64,000 bases of DNA, from the NCBI GenBank assembly GCA_039030295.1, contig JBCCEK010000002.1, positions 3,978-67,977 on the forward strand. Direction: 5' to 3'. The notes beneath the pieces were generated by a model. It was given only the letters and a program-made list of their open reading frames with translations, did not search any database and had not been told where the DNA came from. The position numbers were made by a program, and so were the translations under genes. Positions 46,156 to 64,000 of this stretch are shown here, piece after piece (the stretch's first letter is position 1; every line of letters starts with the position of its first letter). Origin of the DNA: Myxococcota bacterium (GTDB lineage Bacteria > Myxococcota_A > Polyangia > Polyangiales > Houyiibacteriaceae).

Positions 46156-46449
46156 TCAGCGATCGGGTGGGTGGACCGCGTCGGCCGCTCGCCGATTCGG
46201 ACCCTCCGGGGGGACCGAAGGACGAAAAGTTGCCCTCCGAAGGTCCACAACCACTACCAACAGGAACAACGCGAATGATAGCGTACCGATGACTTGTCCG
46301 ATCGACATCGCCATCATTACGGGCACCCACCCTTGGTCGAACAGCGACCAACTCATCAACGCGAGCGCGACGAGCCCGAGAGCGCAGGCCGCCGACAGCA
46401 GTCGACGACGCGACGCCTCGTTCAGAAACCTCTTGAGCTTCGGGTTCAA
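46156..46449 (-). CDS. Hypothetical small membrane protein (about 97 aa, two predicted TM helices)
   Basis: A TTG start overlapping the tetrahaem stop (TTGA) would give LNPKLKRFLNEASRRRLLSAACALGLVALALMSW...VPVMMAMSIGQVIGTLSFALFLLVVVVDL. Start and existence are uncertain. Confidence 0.35.
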   Translation of the reverse strand: MNPKLKRFLNEASRRRLLSAACALGLVALALMSWSLFDQGWVPVMMAMSIGQVIGTLSFALFLLVVVVDLRRATFRPSVPPEGPNRRAADAVHPPDR

Positions 46450-47114
46450 TGGTCCTCCCACAAGGGCGCGATGGGCTTGAGCGTCGCCTCCGCGGCTTCT
46501 TGCGCGGGCTTGCTGAAGGGATGTGCGTACCCATGACACCCGACGCTTGCACAGCTGGTCCTGCCGGTGCGCACATCGTCCAGCACCCCCTGGTGATCCG
46601 GGACCTCGCTCCAGATTCGGCCGCTGGTGCTGTGGCACTGCATGCAGTTGTCGTTTCGAAACGGGCGGGCGATGTGGACCCGTGGGAGCGACTCGTGGGC
46701 GTCTTCCCACATGAAGTCAGTCAGAAAGTAGTATACGTGCCCCATGCCACCAAGCTTGGTGAGTGCGTAGCCGTACATCCCGTAGTCTTTGTGGCAAACG
46801 TAGCAACTCCTGTCCCCAAACATCTTGGTCCGCGAGTGGATCGCCGCGAGCCCGAGGCTGTCGGGATCGTTAGCGTCCTCGATGTGGAGATCCATCGTGT
46901 GGCAGCTTCCACAGAACTCCTGTCGTTCGGTGGCACGGAGTCCTTCGACGTTGCCGATGAGCGCGGTCAGAATCGGCAAGACGCCCAGGCCCAGCCCGAG
47001 GATGACCTTGACCTTGGCATCCGGCGGAGGGCGGTACACCAGGTAGAGCACCATGATCAGCGCCGCAAGAACAGCGCAGGTCAGTGCAAGCCAGGAGAGC
47101 GGCGATACGTGCAT
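46446..47114 (-). CDS. Membrane-anchored tetrahaem c-type cytochrome, NapC/NirT/CymA-like (putative quinol dehydrogenase)
   Basis: Two N-terminal hydrophobic segments. FCGSCHTM, CYVCHKD, CMQCH, and a fourth expanded site CASVGCHGYAH (CX4CH) where NapC has CxxCHxGxxH. Confidence 0.75.
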   Translation of the reverse strand: MHVSPLSWLALTCAVLAALIMVLYLVYRPPPDAKVKVILGLGLGVLPILTALIGNVEGLRATERQEFCGSCHTMDLHIEDANDPDSLGLAAIHSRTKMFGDRSCYVCHKDYGMYGYALTKLGGMGHVYYFLTDFMWEDAHESLPRVHIARPFRNDNCMQCHSTSGRIWSEVPDHQGVLDDVRTGRTSCASVGCHGYAHPFSKPAQEAAEATLKPIAPLWEDH

Positions 47115-48434
47115 GGGGGATCGTGCTCGCCACGACTAAAGTCGAGCCAGCAGCGAAACCATGCTCCAACTCCGGGGAACCGCGCAAGCACGAAGATCGC
47201 CCGAACTGCCAAACGGGCGGCCCCGGTTCTTGCCGCACTTCTTGCGCTAGCAGCGGCCGGCATGGCGAGTTCCGCTGGGGCCCAACCACATCGCCTCGGC
47301 GCCGAGCTGTGGGGCCAGGCCAACCCGAACTACGGACTGATCGTGCTGCAAGGGTCGACCCGCAAGTACCCGTACATCGACGCCGAGGCGCTCGTTTGGG
47401 GAGGTGTGGGCGCTTCGCAAACGGGGTTTGACGACGACGCCACATTCGAAGCCCTGGTAGTCACCGTCCGAGTGCGCGACCCGCGCGGCGTGAGCGATAC
47501 GAGGTTGGGACGCTTCATCTTGTCGACGGGAGCGGTGCGCGCCGTGCAGATCGACGGAGGCCATCTCGTTCTCCGGGCGCCGTCGAAAACACACGTCGAG
47601 GTTTTCGGGGGTGTCCCCGTCGAGGGCGATGCCGAGGGACGTGGTTCCGACTGGATGGTTGGGGGTCGCGTGTCACAGGGACTTGGAAAACGAGGCGTGA
47701 TCGGCGGTTCGTACTACAACCGATTCAACGCCGGTCAGCGCTCGGACGAGGAAGTCGGGGCTGACTTCGCACTTCGCGTCGCGCATTGGCTCGACATGGC
47801 GGCGAAGTTCTCTTGGGAGATCATCAACCCCGGCATCGCCGAGGTGCTGGCAACGGTCTCGGCCCAGACCAAGAACAAGGCGATTCGCGGAGAGGTCTAC
47901 GCGACGAAACGTTCGCCGACACGCATGCTTCAGCAGACTTCCCTGTTCACCGTTTTGGGCGACCCCGAGACTCTTGCGGTTGGCGCGAATCTTCGTTGGC
48001 GTGCGGCCCCTCGACTGGACCTTTGGCTCGACGCCGCTCTTCGGGACGCCCAGGAAGAGCTTGGCTGGAGTGGATACCTCCGCGGCGTTCTCCGAACCGA
48101 CGATGAAGGAAAGGGAAGCATCCTCGGCGAGCTTCGTCGCCAGTCGGTGACGATCGCGAGATGGACGGGAATCCGTTTGGCGGCAGTGATCCCACTGTAC
48201 GAGGATCGCGACACGACCGTTGGGTTGATGCCTGAGTTCGAAGTGATCATTCCGGACGACCCGCAGGAGGGTCAGGGCAAAGTATGGCCTTGGGGGCGGC
48301 TTGCCGTTCGTTGGCGGCCGAGCCCGAGCTGGGCGATCGCCGCGGCTTGCGAAGCAAGTGCCAACCAGGTCGAGCGGTACGAGGTGCGCGCCTTGGCGCG
48401 TGTGGCCTATCAGGGAAAGTGGCCGAAGCAGTGA
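47109..48434 (+). CDS. Predicted outer-membrane beta-barrel (porin-like partner of the multihaem cytochromes); start codon unresolved
   Basis: Signal-like KRAAPVLAALLALAAAGMASSAGAQP. Repeated amphipathic strand-like segments (ALVVTVRV, ADFALRVAH, LAVGANLRWRA, WSGYLRGVLR, GRLAVRWRP, YEVRALARVAYQGKW). The stop overlaps the next gene (GTGA). The only in-frame canonical start upstream of the signal peptide is GTG 47109, which abuts the divergent gene's ATG. Confidence 0.55.
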   Translation: MHGGSCSPRLKSSQQRNHAPTPGNRASTKIARTAKRAAPVLAALLALAAAGMASSAGAQPHRLGAELWGQANPNYGLIVLQGSTRKYPYIDAEALVWGGVGASQTGFDDDATFEALVVTVRVRDPRGVSDTRLGRFILSTGAVRAVQIDGGHLVLRAPSKTHVEVFGGVPVEGDAEGRGSDWMVGGRVSQGLGKRGVIGGSYYNRFNAGQRSDEEVGADFALRVAHWLDMAAKFSWEIINPGIAEVLATVSAQTKNKAIRGEVYATKRSPTRMLQQTSLFTVLGDPETLAVGANLRWRAAPRLDLWLDAALRDAQEELGWSGYLRGVLRTDDEGKGSILGELRRQSVTIARWTGIRLAAVIPLYEDRDTTVGLMPEFEVIIPDDPQEGQGKVWPWGRLAVRWRPSPSWAIAAACEASANQVERYEVRALARVAYQGKWPKQ

Positions 48435-49489
48435 ACCGGGTTCTGGTAGCGCTGGTGACCCCGGGCCTGGTGCTCCTTGCCGTCGGGTGCGCGAAGATCC
48501 TCGGCCTGGAGCAGGAGCCAAACGACGGCCCCTTCGAGCACCGGGCGCATGTGCTCGAGGGCATCAACTGCCTCGAATGCCACGCCGGCATTGAAGACGC
48601 CGGACAGGACGGCCCCCTTCATTTACCGAGCACTGCCGACTGCGTCACATGCCACCGAGATCCCCACGATCCCAACCCGTGCTCGAACTGCCATGGGCGC
48701 GCACGAACTCGAAGCGCAGCCCTCACCGCCAAGGAACACATGCGCTTCTCGCATGCTCAGCACGCCGAAGAGGGGGCGGGCGACTGCATTCGATGCCACG
48801 TCAACGTCACCATCGACGACGACTACGTGCGGACCAAGCATCCGACCTGCTTCGGCTGTCATGCACACAAGGGCCAATGGGACACGCGCGACTGCGACGG
48901 TTGCCATGTCGAGGTTCAGGCGGAACTGGGAATGCCGGAAAGCCACGTCATCCACGACGGCGACTTTCTGCGGGAACATGGTCTGCAAGCCGCCGCTCAA
49001 GCCGACCTGTGCACCAGTTGCCATACCCAACGGGAATGCGCCGAGTGTCACGGTGTGACCGTCGCCGCGATTCCGTCGCGGCTCGCGTTCGACGAGCCCC
49101 TTCGGCCTTCGATGCATCGCGCCAACTTCATAGCGGTTCACGACATGCAGGCGGCGGCCGATCCGGGCGCATGCGTGGTGTGCCATAGCCCATTGTTCTG
49201 CGTCGACTGCCACGAGCGCGTAGGCATCGCCGGGTTCGACGCCCCTAGTGGGAACCCCCATCCGCCGGGTTGGTCCGGTCCTCCTGGAACCTCGAATACC
49301 CACGGGCCGGCGGCGCGCCTCGACCCACTGAACTGCGCAACCTGCCATGGAGGTGCCGGAGAAATGCTCTGCGTCGGGTGCCACCGGGTCGGTGGCCCGG
49401 GAGGCAACCCACACCCTCCGAACTTCGAGAGCCGCCTCGATATCGTCAACGATCTGCCGTGCCGCCTCTGTCACCTGGGTGGTCTATGA
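48431..49489 (+). CDS. 13-haem c-type cytochrome lipoprotein
   Basis: GTG start gives MNRVLVALVTPGLVLLAVGC (lipobox). 13 CxxCH motifs counted in 352 aa. Confidence 0.85.
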   Translation: MNRVLVALVTPGLVLLAVGCAKILGLEQEPNDGPFEHRAHVLEGINCLECHAGIEDAGQDGPLHLPSTADCVTCHRDPHDPNPCSNCHGRARTRSAALTAKEHMRFSHAQHAEEGAGDCIRCHVNVTIDDDYVRTKHPTCFGCHAHKGQWDTRDCDGCHVEVQAELGMPESHVIHDGDFLREHGLQAAAQADLCTSCHTQRECAECHGVTVAAIPSRLAFDEPLRPSMHRANFIAVHDMQAAADPGACVVCHSPLFCVDCHERVGIAGFDAPSGNPHPPGWSGPPGTSNTHGPAARLDPLNCATCHGGAGEMLCVGCHRVGGPGGNPHPPNFESRLDIVNDLPCRLCHLGGL

Positions 49490-51012
49490 GCCGCGCCCTG
49501 ATCGGTGTGGTCGTGTTGATCGCGCTGGGGGTCGCGGGCTGGCTTCTGTTCCAACGTCTGACCACGAACATCGCCACAGTCGTGGAGGAGCGGGCCGCAC
49601 CGCCTCCTCGCGAGGTCACAGCCAGCTGGCCTTCGGATCGCTTCTCGCCGGGGCATTCGGAGCACGTGCTCAACCAGCGACTCGAGTGCAACAACTGCCA
49701 CGACCCAAACAAGGATGGGTTCGAGGGCGTGGATATGGGGGTCTGTACCTCTTGCCACGAATCGCAAGCCGCCATCTCACACATGGGAAGCGACCACACA
49801 CCGACCTCCTGCTTCTCGTGTCATTCGTTCAAGTTCGACAGCCCCATCGAAGGCCCTTGGGATTGCGTCCGGTGCCACGGCCCCTTCGATGCCGCGACCC
49901 ACGAAGGGCTCGCGATGCACAACAGCGTCCCTTGCGCGAACTGTCACCACCCGCATGAACCCATCGAGGAAACCCTGAGCGACTGCACCGGTTGCCACGA
50001 AGGAATCGACCTTCACCACGGGCGTCCGGAGTTGAGTGGGACATGCGCCGACTGCCACGCCGGACATGCGATTGCATCCGAAACGACCGCCTGTATCGAG
50101 TGCCACGCGGACGGGGAGCCGAGAGTCGCGTTGACGGCGACGTTCGACAGCGGCCACGAGTCCTGCGCGAACTGCCACCAGGCTCATCAGTTCTCGAAAG
50201 CAGGCGCCCTGCCCTGCGCCACGTGCCATGCCGACACGGTCGTCCTCGCGGCCAATGAAGCGAAGGCCCACGACGATTGTATGAACTGCCACAACCCGCA
50301 TGCGGTTCGCGGCGCGGGGGATCGGGCGTGCACGCGGTGTCACGCGGCGGTCGCGTCGACGCACCCACCCACCGAGGGAAAGACCTGTATCTCTTGCCAC
50401 CAGCCGCACCCGAAGCGGGCGGCGCAACTGTCGCTCCGCTGCACCGACTGCCACGAAGAAGCGGACTCGGAGCACTCGTTTCACGCATCTAGGACGGCCT
50501 GCATCGACTGCCACCAACCTCACGCGTTCGCGCTGGGAAGCCTCGCCGAGCGCGACCTGTGTGTCCGATGCCACGTCGAGCAGATTCGGTTGACCCGGCT
50601 GAATCAGGGGCATGCGAGCTGCGAATCGTGCCACTCAGGAACGGCACACGAGCCGGGTCCCGTCGCAGCGTGCGCGACCTGTCACGAAGAGGTGCTCGAA
50701 GCGAGCCCGGAAGGCCACCGGGAGTGCGCGTCATGCCACGAGCCGCACGGCGGGAACGTCGTCGCTCAAGAACGTTGCGCCAGCTGTCATGCTCTTGCCG
50801 ACCTGCCCGGCCTCCACCGAATTCCGGGCGAACCCGACGGCCCAGGTCACACGGATTGCAACGCATGTCACGACGTGCACGCCACACGGGCCCGAGCGGA
50901 CCGCGCCAGCTGCATGACCTGCCACGACGACATCGCCGACCATGAACCCGAGGCCAAGCGGTGCACCGGATGCCATACGTTCATCCACGGAAGAGGACGG
51001 CAGGCCCTGTGA
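49486..51012 (+). CDS. 23-haem c-type cytochrome with an N-terminal membrane anchor
   Basis: ATGA overlap with the 13-haem gene. MSRALIGVVVLIALGVAGWLLF anchor. 23 CxxCH motifs counted in 508 aa, many as CxxCHxPH repeats. Confidence 0.85.
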   Translation: MSRALIGVVVLIALGVAGWLLFQRLTTNIATVVEERAAPPPREVTASWPSDRFSPGHSEHVLNQRLECNNCHDPNKDGFEGVDMGVCTSCHESQAAISHMGSDHTPTSCFSCHSFKFDSPIEGPWDCVRCHGPFDAATHEGLAMHNSVPCANCHHPHEPIEETLSDCTGCHEGIDLHHGRPELSGTCADCHAGHAIASETTACIECHADGEPRVALTATFDSGHESCANCHQAHQFSKAGALPCATCHADTVVLAANEAKAHDDCMNCHNPHAVRGAGDRACTRCHAAVASTHPPTEGKTCISCHQPHPKRAAQLSLRCTDCHEEADSEHSFHASRTACIDCHQPHAFALGSLAERDLCVRCHVEQIRLTRLNQGHASCESCHSGTAHEPGPVAACATCHEEVLEASPEGHRECASCHEPHGGNVVAQERCASCHALADLPGLHRIPGEPDGPGHTDCNACHDVHATRARADRASCMTCHDDIADHEPEAKRCTGCHTFIHGRGRQAL

Positions 51013-51031
51013 GTCCGCGCGCATCTCGAAC

Positions 51032-52093
51032 CTAGAACGCGTCGACTCGTCCGTTGATGTGCGGCGCGTCGGCCGTGAGCCGAGTCCCCTCCGGGTTGAT
51101 CCCGCGGTGGCAGCCATTGCACGCGACGATCGCGTGGCCCGCGGGCGGGTTCATATGGCATGCGTTGCAATCGAGCTCTAGATCGGCCTCGTCCCAGGCG
51201 ACCTCCGGGGTCGTCCCGCCGCGAACGTGGCAGGTCGTCGCACAGGCCTGCGTGTCGAAGTCGTACGTCGCATCAGGTCCCCACGCCGGCTGAAAAACGA
51301 CGTCGACCGTCCCGTCTCCATGACTGCCCTCGAGCGACGAGAAGTCTTCGCCGAAATGACAGGAGGCGCACCCGAGCGGGTTGGGCAAGTTCGCCGATGG
51401 CTGCACATGCGAAGGATGTGCACCGGCGAAAGGCGCACCAGGGAAGTAGCACTGGTCGCGCGGCGGATAGGGGCGGAGCCCGTCCCCATGACACGTGCCG
51501 CAGGCCAGCACACCTCCAGGAAGATCATGGCAGGCGGTGCAATCCGTCGCACCAGGCGCAAAGGTCGTGACGTCAGCCACAGGCGCCGGGGAACCGGCGT
51601 GACACAGGCCGCACGCGTCGCCGCGACTTGGGTCGACGATCGGGAGCCAGTCGGTGTCGCGCAAGTAGGTGCCGTGCCATGTGTCAGTCCGCGGGTCCAT
51701 CCATTGCCCCGGATGCGATCCGCGGCGCGCCGGCCAGGCTCCGTCCAGGATCCACTCGGTGAGCTCGTCGGTTTGTTCGTCGTCGAGCAGGTCGGCGTGG
51801 TCGGCCAGGTCGAGCACGGCGAGGATCGGCGCCGTCGTGTCGGCCGGGAGCGTCGCCGGTTGGCCGTCGGGGTCTGGAATGCACCGGATCGTCGCGAGAT
51901 AGTCCTCGACCGAGTAGCCGGCCGATGGGTCTTCTCCACCGTGACACTCGAGACACGCCTCCTCGAGAATCGGATCGATCGCGGCAAAGGCGAGCGGAGG
52001 ATCGGAGCCTTGTCGGGCTTCGTCGCAGGCCACGACCACCAGAACCGACATCGACAGCGCTGCCACCGAGCGCAGAGGCCGCGTCAACGTCAT
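51032..52093 (-). CDS. Multihaem c-type cytochrome lipoprotein (7 CxxCH plus 1 CX3CH)
   Basis: Start MTLTRPLRSVAALSMSVLVVVAC (lipobox) overlaps the upstream stop (ATGA). CLECH, CGLCH, CTACH, CGTCH, CASCH, CATTCH, CNACH, CNGCH. Confidence 0.8.
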   Translation of the reverse strand: MTLTRPLRSVAALSMSVLVVVACDEARQGSDPPLAFAAIDPILEEACLECHGGEDPSAGYSVEDYLATIRCIPDPDGQPATLPADTTAPILAVLDLADHADLLDDEQTDELTEWILDGAWPARRGSHPGQWMDPRTDTWHGTYLRDTDWLPIVDPSRGDACGLCHAGSPAPVADVTTFAPGATDCTACHDLPGGVLACGTCHGDGLRPYPPRDQCYFPGAPFAGAHPSHVQPSANLPNPLGCASCHFGEDFSSLEGSHGDGTVDVVFQPAWGPDATYDFDTQACATTCHVRGGTTPEVAWDEADLELDCNACHMNPPAGHAIVACNGCHRGINPEGTRLTADAPHINGRVDAF

Positions 52094-54159
52094 GGCGCCG
52101 GCGTGTTTGGAAGGAACTCGCCGTGGCACTCGCCGCATACGTTGGTGAACGCGAGAGGTTGGTCAGGCCGACCACCTTCCCACAAGGTCACTGTCATGCG
52201 ATGGCTTGCGATATCGTTCCAGTAGTATTGCACCGTCGGGGGGCCGCCGATGACGTCCCGCAGCGCGGGAACCGCCGCACCTGACCTGGCCGTGGGAACG
52301 AGGTGACACTCCGAACAAACGTACGGCCCGAAGATCTCGACGAGGCTTTCGTGTCCCGCAAAACCGGTTACCTCGGCGACGTGGCCCCCGAGTGGGTAGA
52401 GCTCAGGATTCATCGTAGGACTGTGGCAGGTGGTGCAAACGGTGTTGGGGTCGTCGGTGTCGTCGCTTGCGGCGAGGTCTTCGGCGTTCACGTGAGGGTT
52501 GTGGCACCCAGCGCAGGTCATCAGTCGTTCCGGGTTTCGGTAGTGCCGAGACCGCAGATGATCCGAGTACTGCTGGTAGTCGGCCTTGGGATCGCCCGAC
52601 TCAAAGAACGCATCCGGAGGACCGCTGACGCGCGACGTGTACCCGAGGGCAAAGTCGGCTCGCCGGATCCCCGGAGGAGGCATCGCGTTGTCCGCTGACA
52701 GCGGGAGTCCCGTTTCGCCCGCACCGATCCCGAGGGGTCGGGAGTGACAGCTTCCGCACACCATCGCCTGGCGACCCGGAGTCAGCGAGCCGAGCGCCAC
52801 GATGGAGCCACCGCGGGGTGTCAGCTCCAGGTGGTCTGACCCCGGACCGTGGCAAGCCTCGCAACCTGTATTGATCAACTCGGGCCGCCCATCCCCGTCG
52901 TAGTCGAACGCGCCTTCGGGATCGACGACAGCGCTCGCCGACCAACCCTCGCCGTCACTGCCTTCGAGCCGATAGCCGGTGAAGTGACAGCCGGCGCAGT
53001 TGTTGTCGAACGATTCGGCGTCGTCCGGTTGCTGCAACGTCCCGCCCTCGAAGTCGTACCAGAGGTCGGATCGGTAGTCCCGCCAGGGCCAATCGTCTGG
53101 ATCGGGGTTCGAGAAATCCCCTGCGTAGTTGTACTGCAGCGGCAGCACGTAGTAGCTGAGACTCCCGTTCGCGTTCGTACGACGCGTCAGATACTGCTGC
53201 CGTCCGAGGGCGCCCCCATAGGTAAGAACCACGTCGTAGCGGACGGTCGTGTCACCGTCCATCTCCACGTAATACGCTCCGATCGCACCAAGGGGCTTGT
53301 CCTCGTCGCGCCGCAGGTTGATCGTGAAGGCGACGTCGCCTGCCGGCGGCGCATCGTCTACGCGGCAGTTGGAGGAGTCGGAAGAGGCTTCGTCACAATC
53401 GTAGTAGTAGAGCGTCGTCGCGTTGGTATCGAAGACCGCGAGGGCATCGTCGAATTCGGGCCACCACACGATGTCCTGCAAGATCGAACGAACGCCAGGC
53501 ACCTGAAGCCCGACGTTGTGCGCCGTGCGGGTCGTGCTGTGCAAGCCATGACACCCCATGCAGGTGCTAGAGCCCACGTACGTGGCGGCTGCGCTCGGGC
53601 GAGGGCTCACCCGGATGTCCATCTCCATCCCGATCAGGGACTCGGTCGAAAAAGCGGCCCTACTCCCGTCGCCCCCGATGAAGTGGCCGTCGTCGTCACT
53701 CGCGGGTACCCATACGACGAAGTGATTCCCCTCCGGAAGAGTCTCGAAACGGTAGACACCTTCGGTGTCGACCATCGCCTGATCGTAACCCGCTCCTTGG
53801 GTGTCGATCAGATCCTCAATCGGCTCATCGACTTCGGACATCGCCGTCTCTTCGGGCGAGAGAAACAGATCGATCGGCGTCTGCGAGAGCGTCTCGACGT
53901 CGGCTGCGGGCACCAGGTACACCGTGCCGCTCGGAACCACGACACCGTTCGGCTCGAGGATCCGCCCGACCAGCCCGAATGGCTCCGGCGTGATGCCACC
54001 ATCGGCGGGCGGGCCCGGGGGACCAGGCTCGCCGGGCGGTCCTTGGGGCCCTTGGGGTCCAACATCCCCTTTGCAAGCGCCCACTGCCAAAACGCAAAGC
54101 GCAAGCAGGTGAAGCCAGGGCTGGTCGCGCAGGCACACCATCGCGCTGATGATAGGCAT
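52090..54159 (-). CDS. Octahaem c-type cytochrome lipoprotein with a collagen-like tract and an N-terminal beta-sandwich-like domain
   Basis: ATG at 54159 preceded by GGAAGGAG. Lipobox LAVGAC. GPQGPQGPPGEPGPPGPP tract. GRILEPNGVVVPSGTVYLVP (carboxypeptidase-regulatory-like). 8 CxxCH including CEACHGPGSDH. Confidence 0.8.
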   Translation of the reverse strand: MPIISAMVCLRDQPWLHLLALCVLAVGACKGDVGPQGPQGPPGEPGPPGPPADGGITPEPFGLVGRILEPNGVVVPSGTVYLVPAADVETLSQTPIDLFLSPEETAMSEVDEPIEDLIDTQGAGYDQAMVDTEGVYRFETLPEGNHFVVWVPASDDDGHFIGGDGSRAAFSTESLIGMEMDIRVSPRPSAAATYVGSSTCMGCHGLHSTTRTAHNVGLQVPGVRSILQDIVWWPEFDDALAVFDTNATTLYYYDCDEASSDSSNCRVDDAPPAGDVAFTINLRRDEDKPLGAIGAYYVEMDGDTTVRYDVVLTYGGALGRQQYLTRRTNANGSLSYYVLPLQYNYAGDFSNPDPDDWPWRDYRSDLWYDFEGGTLQQPDDAESFDNNCAGCHFTGYRLEGSDGEGWSASAVVDPEGAFDYDGDGRPELINTGCEACHGPGSDHLELTPRGGSIVALGSLTPGRQAMVCGSCHSRPLGIGAGETGLPLSADNAMPPPGIRRADFALGYTSRVSGPPDAFFESGDPKADYQQYSDHLRSRHYRNPERLMTCAGCHNPHVNAEDLAASDDTDDPNTVCTTCHSPTMNPELYPLGGHVAEVTGFAGHESLVEIFGPYVCSECHLVPTARSGAAVPALRDVIGGPPTVQYYWNDIASHRMTVTLWEGGRPDQPLAFTNVCGECHGEFLPNTPAP
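54007..54060 (-). repeat. Collagen-like (G-X-Y)x6 coding tract
   Basis: GPQ GPQ GPP GEP GPP GPP directly after the lipobox of the octahaem protein. Confidence 0.85.
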
Positions 54160-54236
54160 CCTCGACGCTCCTTCCAACGAAGAAGTGTCGAGGATGCTGT
54201 TTCGACGGTGCTGCAGCGTGACTCTCTGTGTTCAGG

Positions 54237-56834
54237 CTACGGACATGTCGCGGGTCGTTGGGGTACCGTGACTACCCTGGGGGTGCCCCCGAGCAGACAG
54301 GTCGAGTCGAAGAGCAGCTGCTCGATGTACCCACCGTTGTGGATGTATCCAGCCGGGTCTTTGTCGGCTACGACGAAGTTGTAGGCCGCGGTGAGCATGT
54401 CGAAGTCGAAGTCACGGTATCGGTTGGGGTAGTTCGCGCCCTGCCCGTTGTCGTAGAACCAGTACGGATAGCTGTCGCCGTTGTAGAAGACGGGGGAATC
54501 GTTGGGCAGCCCCCCTCCGTCGGCGTAGGCGACGATCGCCGCCAGCAGGTCTTCCTTGAGGACGTTGATCTCCCGGAAGTTGTCGCCGGGCGACCCGCTG
54601 AGGTCCTCGAAGTTCTGGCCGCTGTGGCAAAGGTTGCAGTCTTGGACCTTCGGAAGGAAGGTGTGGATCCCCTTGTCGGCGACATCGTCCGAAGAGTTCA
54701 GGTGGCATCCGATACAGTCGACGAGCGTGCGTCCGTCCTGAGTGTGCAACCCGACGAACGTGTTCTGACCTCGGTACACATTGCCGCCGTACTCGTATCC
54801 GCCTTGAACGTCGGTGCCGAACAGAGTCGCGGCGGCGGCGTAGTAGTGAATGTTGATGAAGTCGTAGGACGGATAGTTATTGGGCATCTGCACGACGCCG
54901 TTGTCGACGGCGCTGTCGACTTGTACCGTTGAGCTCCGACCTTGGTGACAGCCCATGCAAAGGTTGCTCGCATTGTCGAAGCTCGCGGTGTCTCCCGATG
55001 GAAACACAATGCTCGCGAGCGCCGGGTTCGCGCCCAGGTCGTCGTACCGGGTCTCCGAGTTGGAGAACAAGTCGAAGTTGTTGTGGCACGCCCAGCAGTC
55101 CACCGTCGTCGTCGGGACATGCCCGGTCGTCGGGTCGCCCATCGCGTACTCCGCGAAACCTGGCGTACTGTGGCACCTCGAGCAGAAGCTGGGAATGCCG
55201 CTGGGCGTGTACCCGTCGGGCTCGTAATCCTCGTCCCAATGGCGGAATGGATCGGTTGCCGCGGCAGCATGGGCGCTGAGCTGCCACTGCTGCGTCTTCG
55301 AAGCTCCTCCGATGTCGTCCCCGTCGATGGTGAGGTCGCCCCGACCGAGCACGGCCACGGAGGTGGAACCGCCCAGGTCTTGAATCGAATCGTAGACGAT
55401 CTGCTGGAGATAGGTCCCGTTGTGGATGTACCCAGCGGGATCTCTCTGGACGACCTGGTAGTTGTAGGCCGCAGGCAACAGCGTCGCATCGAAGTCTTCG
55501 TACCGGTCATTGGTGCCCTCGACGAAGTAGTACGGAAAGCTGTTCTTGTACTCAATCGGTACACCGATGATGTCGGCGGCATACGTTTGGATCGACGAGT
55601 AGAGCTCGGGCAGCATCTCTTCCAGATTGTCGAAGCTCTGCATCGGCGTGCCGCCAAGAGTCTCGAAGCTGGTGCCGCCGTGACAATTGATGCAGCTTTC
55701 CACGCTCGGAATCCAGGTGTGCATCTCCGGAGGCGAGCCCTGGGCGTTGGTCATGTGACACCCTACGCACGTCGAGAACGACTCGGGATGCGAACCAAAC
55801 GTATCGCGAGGCCTGTACTCCTCGTTCGGGTACTCGAACCCGCCGTAGGTCTCGCTTCCGAAGAAGGTCGCGGCAGCCGCATAGTAGTGAATGTTGATGA
55901 ACCTGTAGGGGCCTTCTCCGTCGTCGGAATCGATCTCGTCCTGCACGTCCTTGCCGGACTCGCGACCCTGGTGGCACACCATGCAGATGTTGCTTGGACT
56001 GTAGAGCGACACCTGATCCGTAGACGGGAAGGTCACGGGTTCGAGCGCGCCGTTGGGAAGCCCAAACTTCGCCAGGTTCGAATAGATCGTAGGGAAGTTC
56101 TGGTGACAGTTGACGCAGTCGAGGCCAAGAGGCAACGGAGCCGAGTTGACGTTGTCGCTCGTCGTTACGTACTCGAGGAAGCCCACCTCGCCACCGACGA
56201 AGTCATTGCCCTGCGGCCCGTGACACTTCGCGCATCGACTCGGGACTTCGCCATCTTCGTCCCAGTGGCGCCAAGCCTCGGCGGTGAGGTCGCCATGACC
56301 GCTACCGGCCCACTCCGTTCGGATGGGGGTTTCGGTGAAGGTATAGCCTTCGGCCTGTTCGGCGGAGTAGGTTTCGGTGCCACCATCGTCCACCGCCGCG
56401 AGGAACTTGAGCACGGTAGTCGAGTCTATCGTGATCGGTCCCGTGTACTCCATGCCCTGCACCGCAATGACGTTGCCCTCGTCGTCTCGCTCGAGAACTG
56501 GAGTCAGGTCATCGGTGTAGTAGATCGTGGCACTCTCGTCGTCCGCCGTGAGCGTCACTTCGACCGTTGGTGCAAACGTCGATCCGGGAGGCGCCGCCGT
56601 AACAGCCGCTGGCGCACCGCCGGTACCACCATCTCCACCGCTGCCCCCCGTACCGCCTCCGCCCATGCCGCCGTCACCGCCGGATCCGCCGCCGCCAGTT
56701 GCGCCGTCACCGCCGCTTCCGCCACCACCGGTACCACCGGTCCCGTCACCATCATCGCAGCCAATCGACGCAACACTCGCCCCTAGGATAGTGATCAGAC
56801 CCAGACGCCACCACAAAGACCAGATCGCTCTCAT
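54237..56834 (-). CDS. Decahaem c-type cytochrome lipoprotein built from two tandem pentahaem modules, with a Gly-rich linker and an Ig-like N-terminal domain
   Basis: Lipobox ASIGC followed by about 48 aa of GGxGG repeats. ATIYYTDD...YTGPITIDSTTVLKF (chitobiase-C-terminal-like). 10 CxxCH. Both halves share FRHWDED...C..CH, FINIHYYAAAAT, DPAGYIHNG. Confidence 0.85.
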   Translation of the reverse strand: MRAIWSLWWRLGLITILGASVASIGCDDGDGTGGTGGGGSGGDGATGGGGSGGDGGMGGGGTGGSGGDGGTGGAPAAVTAAPPGSTFAPTVEVTLTADDESATIYYTDDLTPVLERDDEGNVIAVQGMEYTGPITIDSTTVLKFLAAVDDGGTETYSAEQAEGYTFTETPIRTEWAGSGHGDLTAEAWRHWDEDGEVPSRCAKCHGPQGNDFVGGEVGFLEYVTTSDNVNSAPLPLGLDCVNCHQNFPTIYSNLAKFGLPNGALEPVTFPSTDQVSLYSPSNICMVCHQGRESGKDVQDEIDSDDGEGPYRFINIHYYAAAATFFGSETYGGFEYPNEEYRPRDTFGSHPESFSTCVGCHMTNAQGSPPEMHTWIPSVESCINCHGGTSFETLGGTPMQSFDNLEEMLPELYSSIQTYAADIIGVPIEYKNSFPYYFVEGTNDRYEDFDATLLPAAYNYQVVQRDPAGYIHNGTYLQQIVYDSIQDLGGSTSVAVLGRGDLTIDGDDIGGASKTQQWQLSAHAAAATDPFRHWDEDYEPDGYTPSGIPSFCSRCHSTPGFAEYAMGDPTTGHVPTTTVDCWACHNNFDLFSNSETRYDDLGANPALASIVFPSGDTASFDNASNLCMGCHQGRSSTVQVDSAVDNGVVQMPNNYPSYDFINIHYYAAAATLFGTDVQGGYEYGGNVYRGQNTFVGLHTQDGRTLVDCIGCHLNSSDDVADKGIHTFLPKVQDCNLCHSGQNFEDLSGSPGDNFREINVLKEDLLAAIVAYADGGGLPNDSPVFYNGDSYPYWFYDNGQGANYPNRYRDFDFDMLTAAYNFVVADKDPAGYIHNGGYIEQLLFDSTCLLGGTPRVVTVPQRPATCP
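54285..56312 (-). repeat. Intragenic tandem duplication: two ~315-335-aa pentahaem modules (residues ~175-489 and ~517-850)
   Basis: Collinear shared motifs in both halves: (W/F)RHWDED, five CxxCH each, (F)INIHYYAAAAT(F/L)FG, LLPAAYNY/LTAAYNF, DPAGYIHNG(T/G)Y. Confidence 0.8.
56613..56756 (-). repeat. Low-complexity Gly-rich coding repeat (GGTGG/GGSGGDG units)
   Basis: Residues 27-74 of the decahaem protein: DGDGTGGTGGGGSGGDGATGGGGSGGDGGMGGGGTGGSGGDGGTGG. Confidence 0.9.
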
Positions 56835-58604: not shown

Positions 58605-59054
58605 CTACACGGCAAGTACTTGGCCAACCTGCTTCACCAGCTCGGCCTCATCGCTTGCCGCGAGATCTTTGTCGAGCGACCCCACCACGCAGCGCGCCGT
58701 CGGCTCATCGAGCGCTCCGCGCAGTCTCCCGAGAAACTTCGGTGGCGCCACGAGAACCAGTCGCTCGAAGAGGTCAGCCACGCGCCCATCCTCCAGCTTG
58801 GACGCCAGCCGCCTCGCATGGTCCGCCACCGCGCGATCGCGGGGCCCCTCCGAGCGACTCATGGCGCTCCGCCGTGCGTCCCCAGCGTTGCGACGAAAAC
58901 TCCGGCCAGGTCGATCGGCATCAAACTCTTGGTCTGACTGTCGGCCATCGGCATGCTCGATGCGCTCCAGAAGAACGAGACCTTTGCCAGGTCCACGGTT
59001 CTCGAACAACCTGGCGCCCGCGTCGTGTGCGACCAGCACCCAGGTCGTAGTCAT
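58605..59054 (-). CDS. Host-attachment-family (Host_attach) protein
   Basis: 149 aa. WVLVAHDAGARLFEN...LVLVAPPKFLGRLR...DLAASDEAEL resembles the 'protein required for attachment to host cells' family, from memory. Confidence 0.5.
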   Translation of the reverse strand: MTTTWVLVAHDAGARLFENRGPGKGLVLLERIEHADGRQSDQEFDADRPGRSFRRNAGDARRSAMSRSEGPRDRAVADHARRLASKLEDGRVADLFERLVLVAPPKFLGRLRGALDEPTARCVVGSLDKDLAASDEAELVKQVGQVLAV

Positions 59055-59398
59055 GATGCACCCAGATCTGCGTCAACAGCCGACCGAACGTCGACGCCAA
59101 ACTGGGCCCCGTTCGGGGAACGTGGTGCTGCGTCCGCGACTCGCGGAACTGTAGGGCGTCGTCCGAAATCACGGGTCGATGGTGAGGGATCTGGGCTTGG
59201 TCGAGGCATGTCGATCTCCTGAACTGACAAGACGATTACGCAAGCGCCGTGCCGACTCTGCTCGCCTCAGAATCGTGTTCCACGTCTGGCTGGGCCACTG
59301 AGCTGCGCGCAACGACTGCGTAGCGCGGACTTGGACGCCGCACCAGGCCAAGGACCGCGCGTCCGATCTGCTAGAGTTTGCACTCCACGCCGAGAACC

Positions 59399-60964
59399 AT
59401 GGCTACACTCAAAGACGATCTGTGCACGCAAGGTTTCGAGCTGATCGAAACCCATATTTCTTGGGTGTTCGTGGGCAAGACCGAAGTGTTCAAGGTCAAA
59501 CGCCCGGTCAACTTAGGGTTCCTCGACTTCTCGACGGTGGAGAAGCGGCACTCGGCCTGCCTGGCCGAGGTTCAGCTCAACTCGCGCCTTGCACCCGACG
59601 TGTATCGATCGGTTGTCCCGGTCACGCGCGACGCCCATGGAGCGCATTCCTTGTCGGGCGAGGGCTCGACCGTCGACTGGGCCGTCCGAATGCGCCGCCT
59701 CCGTGAAGAGGATCGAGCCGACGTACGACTCGAAGAGGGCAAACTGGGGATCGAGGACGTTCGCCGGCTCGCACGGCACGTCGCCGACTTCCATGCGCAC
59801 GCTAGCAGCGATGCCGAGACTCGAAGGCATGGCGAAGTCGACGCGATTCGGAGGAACGTCGTCGAGAACTTCGAGCAAACGCTCGATTCGATTCATCATT
59901 ACCTTTCTCCCGCACAAGCGGAGGAGGTCAAGGCTTGGCAGCTCGCGGAGTTGGACGACGTCACCCGATTCTCCGCACGCACACGGGCCGACCGAATTCG
60001 AGACGGGCACGGTGACCTGCGACTCGAGCACGTGTACTTCGGACGAACCGGGGACATCTCAATCATCGACTGCATCGAGTTCAACGAGCGCTTCCGCTAC
60101 GCGGATGTGTGCGCCGACGTGGCGTTCCTCTCCATGGACTTCGCCTGGCACGGCCACGTCGACCTGGCAGAGCATCTGCTCGCCCACTACGCGTGGGAAT
60201 CCGATGACTACGACCTCTACTCGGTGGTGAACTTCTACGAGAGCTATCGCGCGTTCGTCCGCGGAAAGATCTCCGCACTGCTCGCGGATGACGCCGAAGT
60301 ATCCGCCGATGCTCGCCAACGAGCCCGCCGAGATGCAAGGCGCTACTTCGTGCTCTCCTTGGCGTTCGAAAGGCCACCGTTGGAGACTCCACGCGTAGTC
60401 GCCGTCGGCGGTTCGATCGCGAGCGGAAAGAGCACCGTGGCTCGGTACACGGGTGAGCTCTTGGCGGCGCCTGTCATCAGTACAGACCGAACGAGAAAGC
60501 GATTGGCGGGACGGGTTCCGTCCGACTCGATGCGGAGTAGACCTTGGTCCGGCGAGTACTCAGAGGGCGCAACCCGGCGCGTCTACGAAGAAGTACTCCG
60601 GCGAGCCGACGTCGTGGTCCGCTCGGGCCGTCCCGTGGTCCTCGATGCATCGTTCCGTTCCTCGGAGTCGCGTTGCGCAGCCCATGGCGTGGCCGAACGA
60701 CTTGGCGTCCCGTTCACGTTCGTCGAATGCAAAGCTCCCCGTGAGCTGTGTCTCGAACGCCTCGAACGACGCGAGCGAAGTGGTACCCATGACAGCGATG
60801 CACGTTCCGACCTACTCGACTCGTTCGAGGCTCGCTACGAGCCGATCGCGGAGCCTCCTCCTTGGGACTGTTTGCGTGTGGACACCTCTCTTCCGGTGGA
60901 CCGGAATCGACGACTGGTCGCCGAAGCGCTGGCACGCGAACCGTCTTGGCAGTCACCAACCTAG
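59399..60964 (+). CDS. Bifunctional aminoglycoside-phosphotransferase-like / AAA_33 P-loop kinase protein (Rv2004c-like architecture)
   Basis: N-terminal LIETHISWVFVGKTEVFKVKRPV and GHGDLRLEHVY (APH/kinase catalytic region). C-terminal P-loop GGSIASGKST. Start at MATLKDD. Confidence 0.7.
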   Translation: MATLKDDLCTQGFELIETHISWVFVGKTEVFKVKRPVNLGFLDFSTVEKRHSACLAEVQLNSRLAPDVYRSVVPVTRDAHGAHSLSGEGSTVDWAVRMRRLREEDRADVRLEEGKLGIEDVRRLARHVADFHAHASSDAETRRHGEVDAIRRNVVENFEQTLDSIHHYLSPAQAEEVKAWQLAELDDVTRFSARTRADRIRDGHGDLRLEHVYFGRTGDISIIDCIEFNERFRYADVCADVAFLSMDFAWHGHVDLAEHLLAHYAWESDDYDLYSVVNFYESYRAFVRGKISALLADDAEVSADARQRARRDARRYFVLSLAFERPPLETPRVVAVGGSIASGKSTVARYTGELLAAPVISTDRTRKRLAGRVPSDSMRSRPWSGEYSEGATRRVYEEVLRRADVVVRSGRPVVLDASFRSSESRCAAHGVAERLGVPFTFVECKAPRELCLERLERRERSGTHDSDARSDLLDSFEARYEPIAEPPPWDCLRVDTSLPVDRNRRLVAEALAREPSWQSPT

Positions 60965-61591
60965 GATCGCAACCAGCGCTCCGGTCGCAACGATGAGGCC
61001 GCCAACCGCGCCGTCGCCGTACCGATCGAACCAACGGCCCCGAACGAGTCGCCCGCCTGCGTGCGCGACCGTCACGAGTGCGACCATCGTTCCGACGGTG
61101 GCCACCTCATAGGTGACGACGAGCGCAACGACTTCGCCGGGGGTCAACGCTGCGGCGGCGAACAAAATCGGAATCACGGCGACGCACGGGTCGACGCAGT
61201 AGATGAGGAAGAGCGTCCAAGTGGAGAGGCGCGACGGCTCATGCACGTGATCATAGTGATGGTGCCGGTGTCCATGAATGTGGTGTGCGAAGGCGTGGCG
61301 GACCCCCCACACGGCATACGCGACGCCGAAGCCGATCAACAGGAGGCCCGAGACCGACCCCATTCGTGTGCCCACCGACTCGAGCAGCTTGGCGCCGAAG
61401 ACCAAGGCCAGTAGCCCCAGCACCACCGATACCGTCACGTGCCCCAACCCGCAGAGAAGCGCGACACGCATCGTCCTGCCTTTGGACCATCGCCGGGCTC
61501 GCGCGACTGCCGCGATCGGGACCCAGTGGTCCGGCGCCAACGAATGGAGAACGCCAACCGTCACCGCAGCGAACGCCAAGGTCGCGAACAC
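60953..61591 (-). CDS. Nickel/cobalt transporter-like membrane protein (NicO/UreH-like)
   Basis: GTG start with GGAGGA upstream, 1 nt after the hypB stop. LHSLAPDHW motif. Cytoplasmic His-rich loop HAFAHHIHGHRHHHYDHVHE. Six hydrophobic helices. Confidence 0.65.
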   Translation of the reverse strand: MFATLAFAAVTVGVLHSLAPDHWVPIAAVARARRWSKGRTMRVALLCGLGHVTVSVVLGLLALVFGAKLLESVGTRMGSVSGLLLIGFGVAYAVWGVRHAFAHHIHGHRHHHYDHVHEPSRLSTWTLFLIYCVDPCVAVIPILFAAAALTPGEVVALVVTYEVATVGTMVALVTVAHAGGRLVRGRWFDRYGDGAVGGLIVATGALVAILGW

Positions 61592-61592
61592 G

Positions 61593-62345
61593 CTACTGTC
61601 CTCCGTGGGTGTGCTGCTTCCGCGGACCGGAAACAGCGGGTCGAACTTCCGCTCCTGCAGGAAGCGACGGTCGGCGGGCACGCAGCCACGCAACCCACTC
61701 GTCGATGCCCTCCCCTGTCTTCGCCGACACGCGGATCATCGAGGCGTTCGGCATCACCCGTGCCAGCGCCCGATCAACCGCGGCTAAATCGAAATCCAGG
61801 TGCGGGATCAAGTCGACCTTCGTCAGGAGGACCAGGTCTGCTTTTTGGAACATGACCGGATACTTCAAGGGCTTGTCTTCTCCTTCGGTCACAGACAGGG
61901 CTACGACGTTGGCTGCCTGCCCCAGATCGTAGATCGCTGGGCAGACGAGATTGCCAACGTTCTCGATGAAGAACACGTCGCAATCGGTCATCGGCAGATG
62001 GTGCAGAGCGTGATGCACCAAGCGCGCGTCGAGATGGCAAGCGGACCCCGTCGTGATCGTCGTCGACCGGATTCCCGCAGCGTTCAGCCGACCTGCGTCT
62101 CTGTCAGTGGCCAGGTCGCCGCTGACCGCGCGAAGCCGAAGACTCGTTCCAGCGGCTGACGCGGTCGCCTCGAGGACCGCGGTCTTACCCGCTCCAGGTG
62201 AGCCCATCAAATTGATGGCTAGAACACCGGCGCCCTGGAAATGAGATCGATTGTGTTCGGCCCTCGCGTCGTTGTCGGAGAGAATCCGCGACTGCACCTC
62301 GATCGGAACGACTTCGGGGTCGCCGCATCCGCACGTCTCACACAT
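61593..62345 (-). CDS. hypB: Hydrogenase nickel-incorporation GTPase HypB
   Basis: N-terminal MCETCGCG metal site, P-loop GSPGAGKT, ENVGNLVCP, and LTKVDL (NKxD-like). Confidence 0.9.
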   Translation of the reverse strand: MCETCGCGDPEVVPIEVQSRILSDNDARAEHNRSHFQGAGVLAINLMGSPGAGKTAVLEATASAAGTSLRLRAVSGDLATDRDAGRLNAAGIRSTTITTGSACHLDARLVHHALHHLPMTDCDVFFIENVGNLVCPAIYDLGQAANVVALSVTEGEDKPLKYPVMFQKADLVLLTKVDLIPHLDFDLAAVDRALARVMPNASMIRVSAKTGEGIDEWVAWLRARRPSLPAGAEVRPAVSGPRKQHTHGGQ

Positions 62346-62685
62346 CTGCTACCTCCATTTCGATCCTCTCGAGGACGATCTCGTCACCGCGGACGAGAGT
62401 CGCGGGCCGCGAGCAGTCGTGGCACCTGAGCACGGCGCCTCTCGGAATACGTCGATCGCAACGAGTGCAAGCCCACACGGCATCGATCGCGTCGATCTCC
62501 AGTTGCGCCCCTTCGCAGATCGTTCTTTCGCGAAACGTCTCAAACGCTGTTCGAAGCAAGTCCACTTCGACACCCGACAGCTCGCCGATCTTGACGCGTA
62601 GCTTCTGGACTTTCGAGCCACAGTGGGCCTGCACTTCGTGCTCGACCCGGTCGATGAGTGACGCGACGATTGAGTATTCGTGCAC
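62338..62685 (-). CDS. hypA: Hydrogenase maturation nickel metallochaperone HypA
   Basis: GTG start (VHEYSIVASL = canonical MHEYSI) with GGAGGG upstream. Zn site CTRCDRR...CHDCS. 8-nt overlap with hypB. Confidence 0.85.
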   Translation of the reverse strand: MHEYSIVASLIDRVEHEVQAHCGSKVQKLRVKIGELSGVEVDLLRTAFETFRERTICEGAQLEIDAIDAVWACTRCDRRIPRGAVLRCHDCSRPATLVRGDEIVLERIEMEVADV

Positions 62686-62689: not shown

Positions 62690-63526
62690 TCATCCCTCCT
62701 CGAACTTGGGCGCCCTCTTGTCGAAGAACGCTTCGATGCCCTCGGCGAAGTCGGCCCCGTTTGCGACCCGAGCGAGCTCGGAGAGCTCAGCGTCGAGATG
62801 TACATCCAGCCTATCCATGCCGGACGCTTGATTGAGCAACCCCTTGGCGGTCGCCACCGCAGAGCGAGGAGACGCCGCCAAGCGATGCGCGACTTCGCGT
62901 ACTTGGGGCTCGAAAGACACGTCTGTGAACACACGGTTGACCAGTCCCCACTCGAGTGCTTCTTGGGCACTCAGTCGTGGGTTGAGCAGGATGAACTCGA
63001 GGGACCTGCGGAGCCCCACCAGTCTCGGAAGCAAGAATGTCGAGCTCTCGGCGCCGCTCAGCCCGGTCTTGAAGTAGGCCCACTCGAACCACGCCCGCTC
63101 GGATGCGAGAACCAAGTCGCAACTCATCGCGATCCCGAATCCCCCTGCCGCCGCGGCGCCGTCAACAGCAGCAACAAATGGTTTTGACGCACGACGGATC
63201 TCCGAGATCGCACTGTGGATGTACTCGAGGATCTGCTTGAACACCCGACCGTAGCCTGGGTCAGAGGATTCGGGACGCAGGTATTGGAGGTCGCTCCCTT
63301 CGCCGCCGTCTCGAATGTACTTGAGGTCGGCCCCACTGCAGAACACCCCTCCTTCGCCACGAATCAGCACGACCCGCACTTCGTTGTCGCGCGCGAGCTG
63401 CAATCCAGCCTTTCTGAAATCCTGGGCCGTGCGCACATCGAGGGAGTTGAGTCTCTCGCGGCGATCGATCGTGAGGACCCCGACGGGGCCATCTCGCTCG
63501 ACCCGGATGTTGCTTTCGCTGGCCAT
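62690..63526 (-). CDS. Crotonase-fold (enoyl-CoA hydratase/isomerase superfamily) protein lacking both hydratase catalytic glutamates, embedded in the hyp operon
   Basis: VVLIRGEGGVFCSGADL oxyanion-hole motif. Gapless alignment to rat ECHS1 AAVNGYALGGGCELAMMCD...FGQPEILLG (reference sequence recalled from memory) gives AAVDGAAAAGGFGIAMSCD...FEWAYFKTG, i.e. Glu to Gly and Glu to Tyr. Lies 1 nt after the hypE stop and 4 nt before the hypA start. Confidence 0.8.
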   Translation of the reverse strand: MASESNIRVERDGPVGVLTIDRRERLNSLDVRTAQDFRKAGLQLARDNEVRVVLIRGEGGVFCSGADLKYIRDGGEGSDLQYLRPESSDPGYGRVFKQILEYIHSAISEIRRASKPFVAAVDGAAAAGGFGIAMSCDLVLASERAWFEWAYFKTGLSGAESSTFLLPRLVGLRRSLEFILLNPRLSAQEALEWGLVNRVFTDVSFEPQVREVAHRLAASPRSAVATAKGLLNQASGMDRLDVHLDAELSELARVANGADFAEGIEAFFDKRAPKFEEG

Positions 63527-63527: not shown

Positions 63528-64000
63528 TCAGCAGATCCTCGGCAAGAGCTCGCCCTCGGCCTCGGGTAGGAGCCGTCGGCCAAAACCGGTGTCGAGTACG
63601 ACGAACCCCGGGCGATCGGCGACGCACTCGGCAACGATCGCCGCGTGTTTACCAAGCGGATGCGACCGTACCGCGTCGAGCACCGCGTCGGCGCAATGGG
63701 CCTTCAACCCGATGACCGCCTTGCCTTCGTTGGCCACGAGGAGAGGATCGATCCCGAGGAGCTCGCCGACGGCGACAACCTCATCTCGCAGCGGAACGTC
63801 CAGACCGTGTAGGACGATACCGACGCCGCTCTTTTGCGCCATCTCGTGAAGGGCGCTCGAGAGCCCACCGCGAGTGGGGTCCTTCATCGCCACGACCCCT
63901 TCCCCGCCGACCTCGAGCGCGAGGCGTACCAGGGTGTTGATCGGCGCGACGTCTGAGACGAGCTCCGTCTCGAGCGCTAGCTCGTTACGGGTGGCCATGA
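63528..64000 (-). CDS. hypE: Hydrogenase maturation protein HypE, C-terminal part (5' end outside the window)
   Basis: AIR-synthase-like C-terminal domain (AMKDPTRGGLSSALHEMA, LLVANEGK), ending in the HypE-specific PRIC terminal cysteine. Confidence 0.85.
   Translation of the reverse strand, partial: MATRNELALETELVSDVAPINTLVRLALEVGGEGVVAMKDPTRGGLSSALHEMAQKSGVGIVLHGLDVPLRDEVVAVGELLGIDPLLVANEGKAVIGLKAHCADAVLDAVRSHPLGKHAAIVAECVADRPGFVVLDTGFGRRLLPEAEGELLPRIC

Follow-up and report, generated by a model that had tools for sequence, protein, structure and literature searches.

Where does the carbon monoxide (CO) ligand of [NiFe]-hydrogenases come from in organisms that lack HypX? An answer is established only where HypX is present as a fused protein, and the ligand's source and enzymes elsewhere are the most pressing open questions in a 2025 review (PMC12134894). 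A 64-kb stretch of a Myxococcota contig (JBCCEK010000002.1), analysed here as a whole and called the window, raises this question at its end, where the hyp genes lie on the minus strand and an open reading frame (ORF) encoding a 278-residue crotonase is inserted between hypE and hypA. We find that this gene is a member of a crotonase family dedicated to hyp operons, at the position that hypX occupies; its product probably acts as an accessory enzyme in the maturation of a membrane-bound uptake [NiFe]-hydrogenase, and is predicted to decarbonylate formyl-coenzyme A (formyl-CoA) to CO as HypX does. The observed basis of this reading is the fold, the active-site residues, the conserved operon position and, in relatives, a formyltransferase partner.

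A crotonase family dedicated to hyp operons

Five tightly packed minus-strand genes close the window, here in their order of transcription:

63528..64000, minus strand: hypE, 3′ part; the last 156 codons, the gene running past the window end
62690..63526, minus strand: hyp-linked crotonase, 278 residues; Pfam ECH_1, 1e-45; proposed formyl-CoA decarbonylase
62338..62685, minus strand: hypA, nickel metallochaperone, GTG start; Pfam HypA PF01155, 3e-27, profile positions 1-112; N-terminus VHEYSI
61593..62345, minus strand: hypB, nickel-insertion GTPase; TIGR00073, 7e-80, above cutoff; 8-nt overlap with the end of hypA
60953..61591, minus strand: putative Ni/Co permease, last gene of the operon, 212 residues (as called on the longer contig L001); weak NicO match

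A preliminary description of the locus had placed the crotonase ORF 1 nt downstream of the hypE stop and 4 nt upstream of the hypA GTG, and the coordinates confirm this: hypE ends in PRIC with a TGA stop at 63530-63528, the crotonase ATG (63526-63524) follows after the single nucleotide 63527, and the crotonase TGA (62692-62690) is followed by the four nucleotides ACCC and then by the hypA GTG at 62685. A longer, TTG-started version of the ORF, reaching to 63655 and overlapping hypE, is unsupported; orthologues start at the ATG. The hypE fragment corresponds to the C-terminal part of the protein (NCBIfam TIGR02124, 9.4e-45, profile positions 177-332 of 332; also Pfam AIRS_C). The gene downstream of hypB had been called a Ni transporter; it does encode a membrane protein with a His-rich loop (HHIHGHRHHHYDH) and is kept after hypB in most related loci, but its NicO match (1.1e-4) is weak and below cutoff, and the transporter identity is best described as plausible. 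Upstream, beyond the window, where the preliminary description had proposed a search for hypC, hypD, hypF and the structural genes, contig L001, which encodes an identical crotonase protein, has hypF (its end), hypC and hypD preceding hypE, and long orthologous contigs carry the full operon in the order small subunit, large subunit, cytochrome b, endopeptidase, cytochrome c, hypF, hypC, hypD, hypE, crotonase, hypA, hypB, permease.

Close homologues of the crotonase (73-81% identity) are abundant in metagenome-assembled genomes (MAGs) of Myxococcales and Polyangiales, where they are annotated as enoyl-CoA hydratase or PaaG. The family as a whole is tight (64-100% identity) and has no name in the curated Pfam or NCBIfam models. 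A HMMER search run exhaustively over 1.84 billion cluster representatives shows that its boundary is sharp: scores stand at 380 bits (66% identity) on the family side and at about 170 bits (about 40% identity) where generic crotonases begin, and what lies in between consists of fragments and of read-throughs into hypE, hypA or the formyltransferase gene described below. Representatives that looked like longer fusions were rejected as read-throughs into the same three genes. A long stem parts the family from generic crotonases, and conservation across phyla is strong. The sole candidate for a more distant branch (P0137, 39% identical, with a family-like FEWAY..AE motif) was set aside after a metagenome scan gave no usable relatives.

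Scanning one genome per GTDB species for two motifs (FEWAY[FG][KR]T and [FL]K[QE]I[LV]EY[IL]H) found relatives in 447 species-level genomes; conservation of the scan motifs within this set is partly circular, and Glu160, Gly158 and Ala127, discussed below, lie outside both patterns. The loci that we inspected are the best 80 of these 447, all of them MAGs, from at least four phyla, with crotonases of 64-81% identity, and bear their depositors' taxon labels: Myxococcota, Acidobacteriota (Vicinamibacteria, Thermoanaerobaculia), Gemmatimonadota, Rokubacteria/Methylomirabilia (Methylomirabilota) and one Betaproteobacteria. One MAG labelled Nitrosotalea, an archaeon (L050, DATIWG010000055.1), has a bacterial hyp/crotonase operon; its crotonase has its closest counterpart in a Myxococcaceae bin (L052), and contamination during binning is the probable cause.

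Adjacency to hypE was counted in the 72 of the 80 loci with more than 1.2 kb of DNA upstream of the crotonase, and the crotonase lies downstream of hypE in every one of them, directly in 60, with one extra gene in 11 and with an insertion sequence element in between in 1. Downstream, hypA follows in 57 of 77 loci. Recurrence of the hyp linkage in other genomes, which the preliminary description had asked for, is thus established, and with it that the ORF is no stray hydratase: chance or a metabolic explanation of the hypE-crotonase adjacency is excluded. Neither the window nor the 80 related loci contain paa genes, and there are no beta-oxidation genes near the crotonase on the long contigs examined. 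Among PLSDB plasmids only generic crotonases of less than 40% identity were found, and the family is not plasmid-borne there.

The sole break in adjacency among the 72 loci, in a Thermoanaerobaculia genome (L079:7998-9998), is an insertion of about 2 kb that parts hypE from the crotonase; its 423-residue ORF is transposase-like as read from its sequence, with no family-search confirmation. The linked hydrogenases are of different group-1 types, one contig (L088) having a HybA/HybB-type electron-transfer module in place of cytochrome b; therefore the crotonase travels with hypCDE and not with one particular hydrogenase. In an operon orthologous to that of the window, the small subunit (L002:740-1870) reads QDCAGNTES at the first proximal-cluster motif, where C. 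necator (Cupriavidus necator) HoxK has ECTCCSES and standard hydrogenase small subunits have C-T-G-C, so that an Asn stands where a cluster cysteine is expected; its second motif, GTCASFGG, is without the extra Cys of O2-tolerant enzymes.

The active site and its likeness to HypX

The protein belongs to the crotonase superfamily (PF00378, 1e-45 over residues 13-277), with both oxyanion-hole loops present and an ordinary crotonase helix, FAEGIEAFFDKRAPKFEEG, at its C-terminus. An AlphaFold2 model (predicted local distance difference test, pLDDT, 80.6) resembles solved crotonases with template-modelling (TM) scores of 0.7-0.8; the input to this second run was a mixed alignment of the family and HypX, and the modelled fold is not independent of HypX information. 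A first run, on 21 close orthologues, gave a pLDDT of 55.6 and was discarded. Three elements make up the active site:

63326..63343, minus strand: first oxyanion-hole / CoA-binding motif, F62-D67 (FCSGAD); a conserved crotonase motif, invariant in the family
63134..63154, minus strand: second oxyanion-hole loop, A125-G131 (AAAGGFG); Gly131 at the hydratase Glu144 position, Ala127 common to HypX
63035..63091, minus strand: catalytic loop, W146-F164 (WFEWAYFKTGLSGAESSTF); Tyr151 at 63074-63076 and Glu160 at 63047-63049; invariant in the family

The preliminary description had read the oxyanion elements FCSGADL and AAAGG as kept and both hydratase glutamates as replaced, and both readings hold: in alignments to the solved crotonases 2ej5 and 4fzw_C, Gly131 and Tyr151 occupy the columns of the canonical glutamates, which we take to be Glu144 and Glu164 in rat hydratase numbering. 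Its spacing of nine residues between a Tyr and a Glu is likewise correct, the two being Tyr151 and Glu160. Asp137, Tyr151, Glu160 and both oxyanion-hole loops are invariant in the family, and Gly65 is invariant in the family, in HypX and in generic crotonases alike. After the first oxyanion loop comes a family-specific insertion of about 17-19 residues (residues ~73-96), found neither in HypX nor in the PaaG-like branch considered below.

How far does this active site resemble that of HypX? In HypX (also HoxX), which synthesises the CO ligand in aerobic [NiFe]-hydrogenase maturation, Tyr416 and Glu426 of the A. aeolicus (Aquifex aeolicus) protein, equivalent to Tyr439 and Glu449 in C. necator, adjoin the CoA thiol, and C. 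necator mutants in these two residues have a HypX-minus phenotype (Muraki et al., PMC6802093). Tyr151 and Glu160 align with this pair (HypX loop NPHYKNMGNLYGSEYWTY) in a pairwise BLASTP alignment (29% identity, E 3e-10), in a MAFFT alignment with 123 neighbours, in an hhalign profile-profile alignment, with maximal column confidence, and in an alignment that combines 20 family with 30 HypX sequences; neither residue varies among the family members examined or among 91 HypX C-domains. Three residues discriminate: Glu160, found in 1% of generic neighbours, Gly158, found in 5%, and Ala127, present in 100% of the family and 100% of HypX C-domains and in 2% of generic neighbours. Correspondingly, the active-site loop reads G-A-E-S in the family and G-S-E-Y in HypX, whereas generic neighbours usually have P-D-G-G.

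Six positions in all (G16, I71, I99, A127, G158 and E160) are identical and conserved in the family and in HypX C-domains and occur in less than 15% of generic neighbours, and three of them (A127, G158, E160) fall within two active-site loops. In a permutation control the expected number was 0.66 and 0 of 20,000 permutations reached 6, a result that is suggestive, not exact, as the control ignores alignment bias. Mean identity to HypX C-domains is higher for the family than for the other crotonases compared (24-27.5% versus at most 24.8%), a weak excess. The position in the operon also matches: on C. necator pHG1, hypX stands directly after hypE, in the slot of this crotonase.

The preliminary description had gone further and proposed a stand-alone version of the HypX decarbonylase half. 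The operon slot and the Tyr/Glu pair speak for that idea, but the protein does not look like a detached half. HypX is a fusion of about 560-600 residues, in which an N-terminal N10-formyl-tetrahydrofolate-dependent formyltransferase is joined to the crotonase, whereas here a separate protein of 278 residues has a single ECH domain; a canonical HypX N-domain was found neither in any of the 80 loci nor in the window. The C-terminal tail of HypX (A. aeolicus residues 543-562, motif NFYGFD..SYH.ARY.FV; PMC6802093) is absent, the Tyr-Glu spacing is 10 in HypX and 9 in the family, and HypX C-domains are 26-29% identical to this protein, compared with about 40% for generic crotonases. 

Overall sequence and fold similarity is highest to a branch of PaaG-like, PRK05981-like and 'oxepin-CoA hydrolase alternative type' crotonases (2ej5, 4fzw_C, 3hrx, 4lk5), which are likewise without the hydratase glutamates, have a Tyr at the rat Glu164 position, are of the same length class and share the C-terminal helix ending KR.P.F. 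The best NCBIfam models are correspondingly PRK05981, 'oxepin-CoA hydrolase alternative type', EchA19 and PaaG, all far below cutoff; for PaaG (TIGR02280) the score is 155.6 bits against a cutoff of 345, and the protein falls outside that family. Besides the insertion, the family differs from this branch in that the generic P-D-G-G loop has become G-A-E-S, in an oxyanion loop A-A-G-G where generic crotonases have A-G-G-G, and in a gene context of hyp genes, never of paa or beta-oxidation genes. The best NCBIfam crotonase models of HypX are the same (oxepin_alt, PaaG, PRK05981), and because these coincide, the HypX C-domain and the family may come from the same Tyr-bearing crotonase branch. Simple fission of a hypX gene is unlikely, and the arrangement looks like parallel recruitment; between a distant common origin with HypX and convergence, neighbour-joining (NJ) bootstraps favour neither.

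Truly split canonical HypX proteins were sought as well. The 'C-domain only' proteins returned by a HypX C-domain profile search were rejected as frameshift artefacts of long-read assemblies: in L090:5149-6891 and L091:5160-6879 the ORFs for the N- and C-parts of hypX share about 50 nt, and hypF of L090 is fragmented too.

A formyltransferase partner and the proposed reaction

If the crotonase acts on formyl-CoA, a formyltransferase might be encoded nearby, and the preliminary description had proposed looking for a separate gene of this kind. In 12 of the 80 loci (L046, L049, L054, L065, L067, L068, L071, L074, L077, L081, L084, L085) such a gene separates hypE from the crotonase, though neither in the window nor in its Myxococcota clade. 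The inserted ORF encodes 190-280 residues, matches Pfam Formyl_trans_N at 1e-14 to 1e-19 and retains the Asn-x-His and Asp catalytic residues (IVNIHDADL ... LDAGPV); its stop codon overlaps the start of the crotonase, or directly adjoins it, in several loci. Independent contigs (L086-L089) show the order hypF-C-D-E-formyltransferase-crotonase-hypA-hypB again. The domain order of HypX is thus matched by the gene order in the 12 related loci, and the two genes together would represent the two activities of HypX, in the same order.

This hyp-linked formyltransferase is nearest to PurN, the glycinamide ribonucleotide (GAR) formyltransferase: it has the same Formyl_trans_N fold, and its best solved matches are PurN structures (1e-15 to 1e-16). 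It differs from PurN in its score (70-76 bits, cutoff 150), in an 8-residue insertion after the His motif, in a distinct C-terminal part (AYAYAQREWMM) and in its location between hypE and the crotonase and not among purine genes. The family has 474 matches, and all those listed are stand-alone and automatically named PurN. Whereas the HypX N-domain is Fmt/FDH-like, the hyp-linked enzyme is PurN-like, does not retrieve the HypX structure 6J0P and reaches 23 bits in BLASTP against the HypX N-domain. One cluster representative (P0205, 466 residues) holds a PurN-like formyltransferase (residues 3-232) and a family crotonase (residues 244-416) in one ORF; it may be a natural fusion, that is, a second HypX-like architecture, or a read-through error.

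In the family tree, rooted on generic crotonases, the formyltransferase-linked loci are scattered in deep Acidobacteriota and Gemmatimonadota clades, and the window falls in a nested Myxococcota clade in which no member has the formyltransferase at the locus. On this distribution the two-gene state appears to be old, with several losses or relocations of the formyltransferase.

From these observations we infer the substrate, the release of CO and its hand-over to HypCD as follows. Formyl-CoA would be bound with its thioester carbonyl in the oxyanion hole that the FCSGAD and AAGG loops provide through their backbone NH groups. Tyr151 and Glu160 would serve as the base, directly or via a water molecule, and take the formyl proton, as proposed for HypX, upon which CO and CoA-SH would be released. 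The CO would then be captured by the iron on the HypC-HypD scaffold, to which HypE and HypF, encoded just upstream, add the cyanides. Where present, the PurN-like enzyme presumably makes formyl-CoA from N10-formyl-tetrahydrofolate, so that the pair would be a two-gene functional analogue of HypX. In the Myxococcota lineage of the window, formyl-CoA would instead have to come from an unlinked formyltransferase or from general metabolism; several possible cellular sources of formyl-CoA are listed in the 2025 review (PMC12134894).

A number of results weigh against this reading. No formyltransferase lies within 10 kb in 68 of the 80 loci, among them every locus of the Myxococcota clade that holds the window, and the 64-kb window is without a formyltransferase, a hypX N-domain or another obvious formyl-CoA gene: tblastn of the HypX N-domain and of PurN-like formyltransferases against the window gave nothing better than E ~0.4 besides the crotonase, and 30 further window ORFs scanned with Pfam, which encode Nqr subunits, HMG-CoA reductase, PEPCK, multihaem cytochromes and other proteins, included no one-carbon or formyl-CoA gene. 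The small subunit of the linked hydrogenase is without the six-cysteine signature of classic O2-tolerant enzymes; therefore a special need for an aerobic CO route is not evident. 

The crotonase itself is nearer to PaaG-like crotonases than to HypX in overall sequence and fold, its best solved matches being 2ej5 and E. coli PaaG (4fzw_C), and HypX (6J0P, A. aeolicus) lies outside the 50 best solved structures in Foldseek. Profile comparison by hhalign gave 132 between the family and HypX C-domains, 145 between generic crotonases and HypX and 570 between the family and generic crotonases, and HypX was sister to the family in 25% of NJ bootstraps. As to the Tyr/Glu pair, which the preliminary description had seen as HypX-like, its alignment with Tyr439/Glu449 and its invariance stand; Tyr151, however, is not diagnostic, as 73-76% of the nearest generic crotonases have it too. 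If the P-D loop of generic crotonases is taken to carry the isomerase base, Glu160 could be that ordinary base in a shifted place, neighbours usually having an Asp one position earlier (in the PDGG loop).

One further reading keeps the chemistry and drops the dedicated partner. The protein could be an independently evolved, self-sufficient formyl-CoA decarbonylase, fed in most carriers, the Myxococcota lineage of the window among them, by free formyl-CoA from general metabolism and without a dedicated N10-formyl-tetrahydrofolate transferase; we regard this as possible but less likely than not. If it were true, phyla abundant in soil and sediment would have a second, widespread way of making the CO ligand enzymatically, and the decarbonylase step alone would be the essential invention.

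A genuine maturation factor might also carry out another CoA-thioester reaction without releasing CO, hydrolysing or in some other way processing formyl-CoA or a different small acyl-CoA, supplying another C1 intermediate, or removing a side product of the reactions of HypE, HypF and HypCD. The hyp linkage fits any maturation role, over its whole length the protein resembles isomerase- and hydrolase-type crotonases (PaaG, 'oxepin-CoA hydrolase alternative type', PRK05981), and most loci have no formyltransferase. Yet the 12 loci in which a folate-type formyltransferase sits exactly between hypE and the crotonase point to formyl chemistry, A127, G158 and E160 are specifically common to HypX, and [NiFe] cofactor assembly has no other known CoA-dependent step (PMC12134894). 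We regard such a role as rather unlikely.

It is improbable that the protein serves as a mere structural or scaffolding subunit without catalytic activity, binding CoA or docking on HypC, HypD or HypE and doing no more: both classical hydratase glutamates are missing and the family insertion (residues ~73-96) could be a docking surface, but invariant oxyanion-hole loops, Asp137, Tyr151 and Glu160 form a pattern typical of an active enzyme, and the identity between phyla (64-81%) clusters around the active-site loops. An ordinary crotonase of metabolism, for instance a PaaG-like isomerase from fatty-acid or aromatic degradation caught in a hyp operon by accident, is what automatic annotations (enoyl-CoA hydratase or PaaG) and the best structural and NCBIfam matches would suggest, but scores far under the cutoffs (PaaG, 156 against 345), the sharp score gap to generic crotonases, the absence of paa and beta-oxidation genes nearby and hypE adjacency in 72 of 72 loci from several phyla make this highly improbable, the linkage effectively refuting it.

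The decarbonylase reading, which we prefer, would have a bearing on how hydrogenase maturation is understood and annotated. That the arrangement had not been described agrees with our full-text search of the literature, in which neither a stand-alone nor a two-gene HypX appeared; the HypX structure paper (PMC6802093) and the 2025 review (PMC12134894) treat fused HypX only. What would be new here is HypX-like CO-ligand synthesis, in stand-alone or two-gene form, from different parent enzymes, the functional statements being predictions. The gene is an unannotated accessory gene behind the database names enoyl-CoA hydratase and PaaG, with relatives in hundreds of species and locked to hypCDE in the loci inspected. 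If it makes CO, HypX-type chemistry would be far wider than searches for hypX suggest, would have been assembled at least twice from different parent enzymes, and could run with its halves uncoupled or with the first half missing. It would also offer a direct experimental handle on the question whether hydrogenase maturation can be fed by free formyl-CoA, and better annotation of H2-oxidising potential in metagenomes.

Other genes in the window

A few genes downstream of the hyp genes, at 46446-56834 and on both strands, lie at least six multihaem c-type cytochrome genes, among them genes for proteins of 865, 695 and 580 residues; the 865-residue cytochrome has a Gly-rich, GGSGGDG-type repeat near its N-terminus. 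This block may serve the hydrogenase as its electron outlet, or may be a system for extracellular electron transfer. Between the putative permease and the cytochromes lie a gene for a Host_attach/baeRF-family12 protein of 149 residues (58605-59054, minus strand) and one for a 528-residue protein with an AAA_33 kinase-like domain (59378-60964, plus strand), neither of them known as hyp-associated. Two separate Na+-NQR-like gene sets are found further away, at 6307-10443 and 31879-37742, one NqrB/D/F-like and the other NqrA/C/D/F-like.

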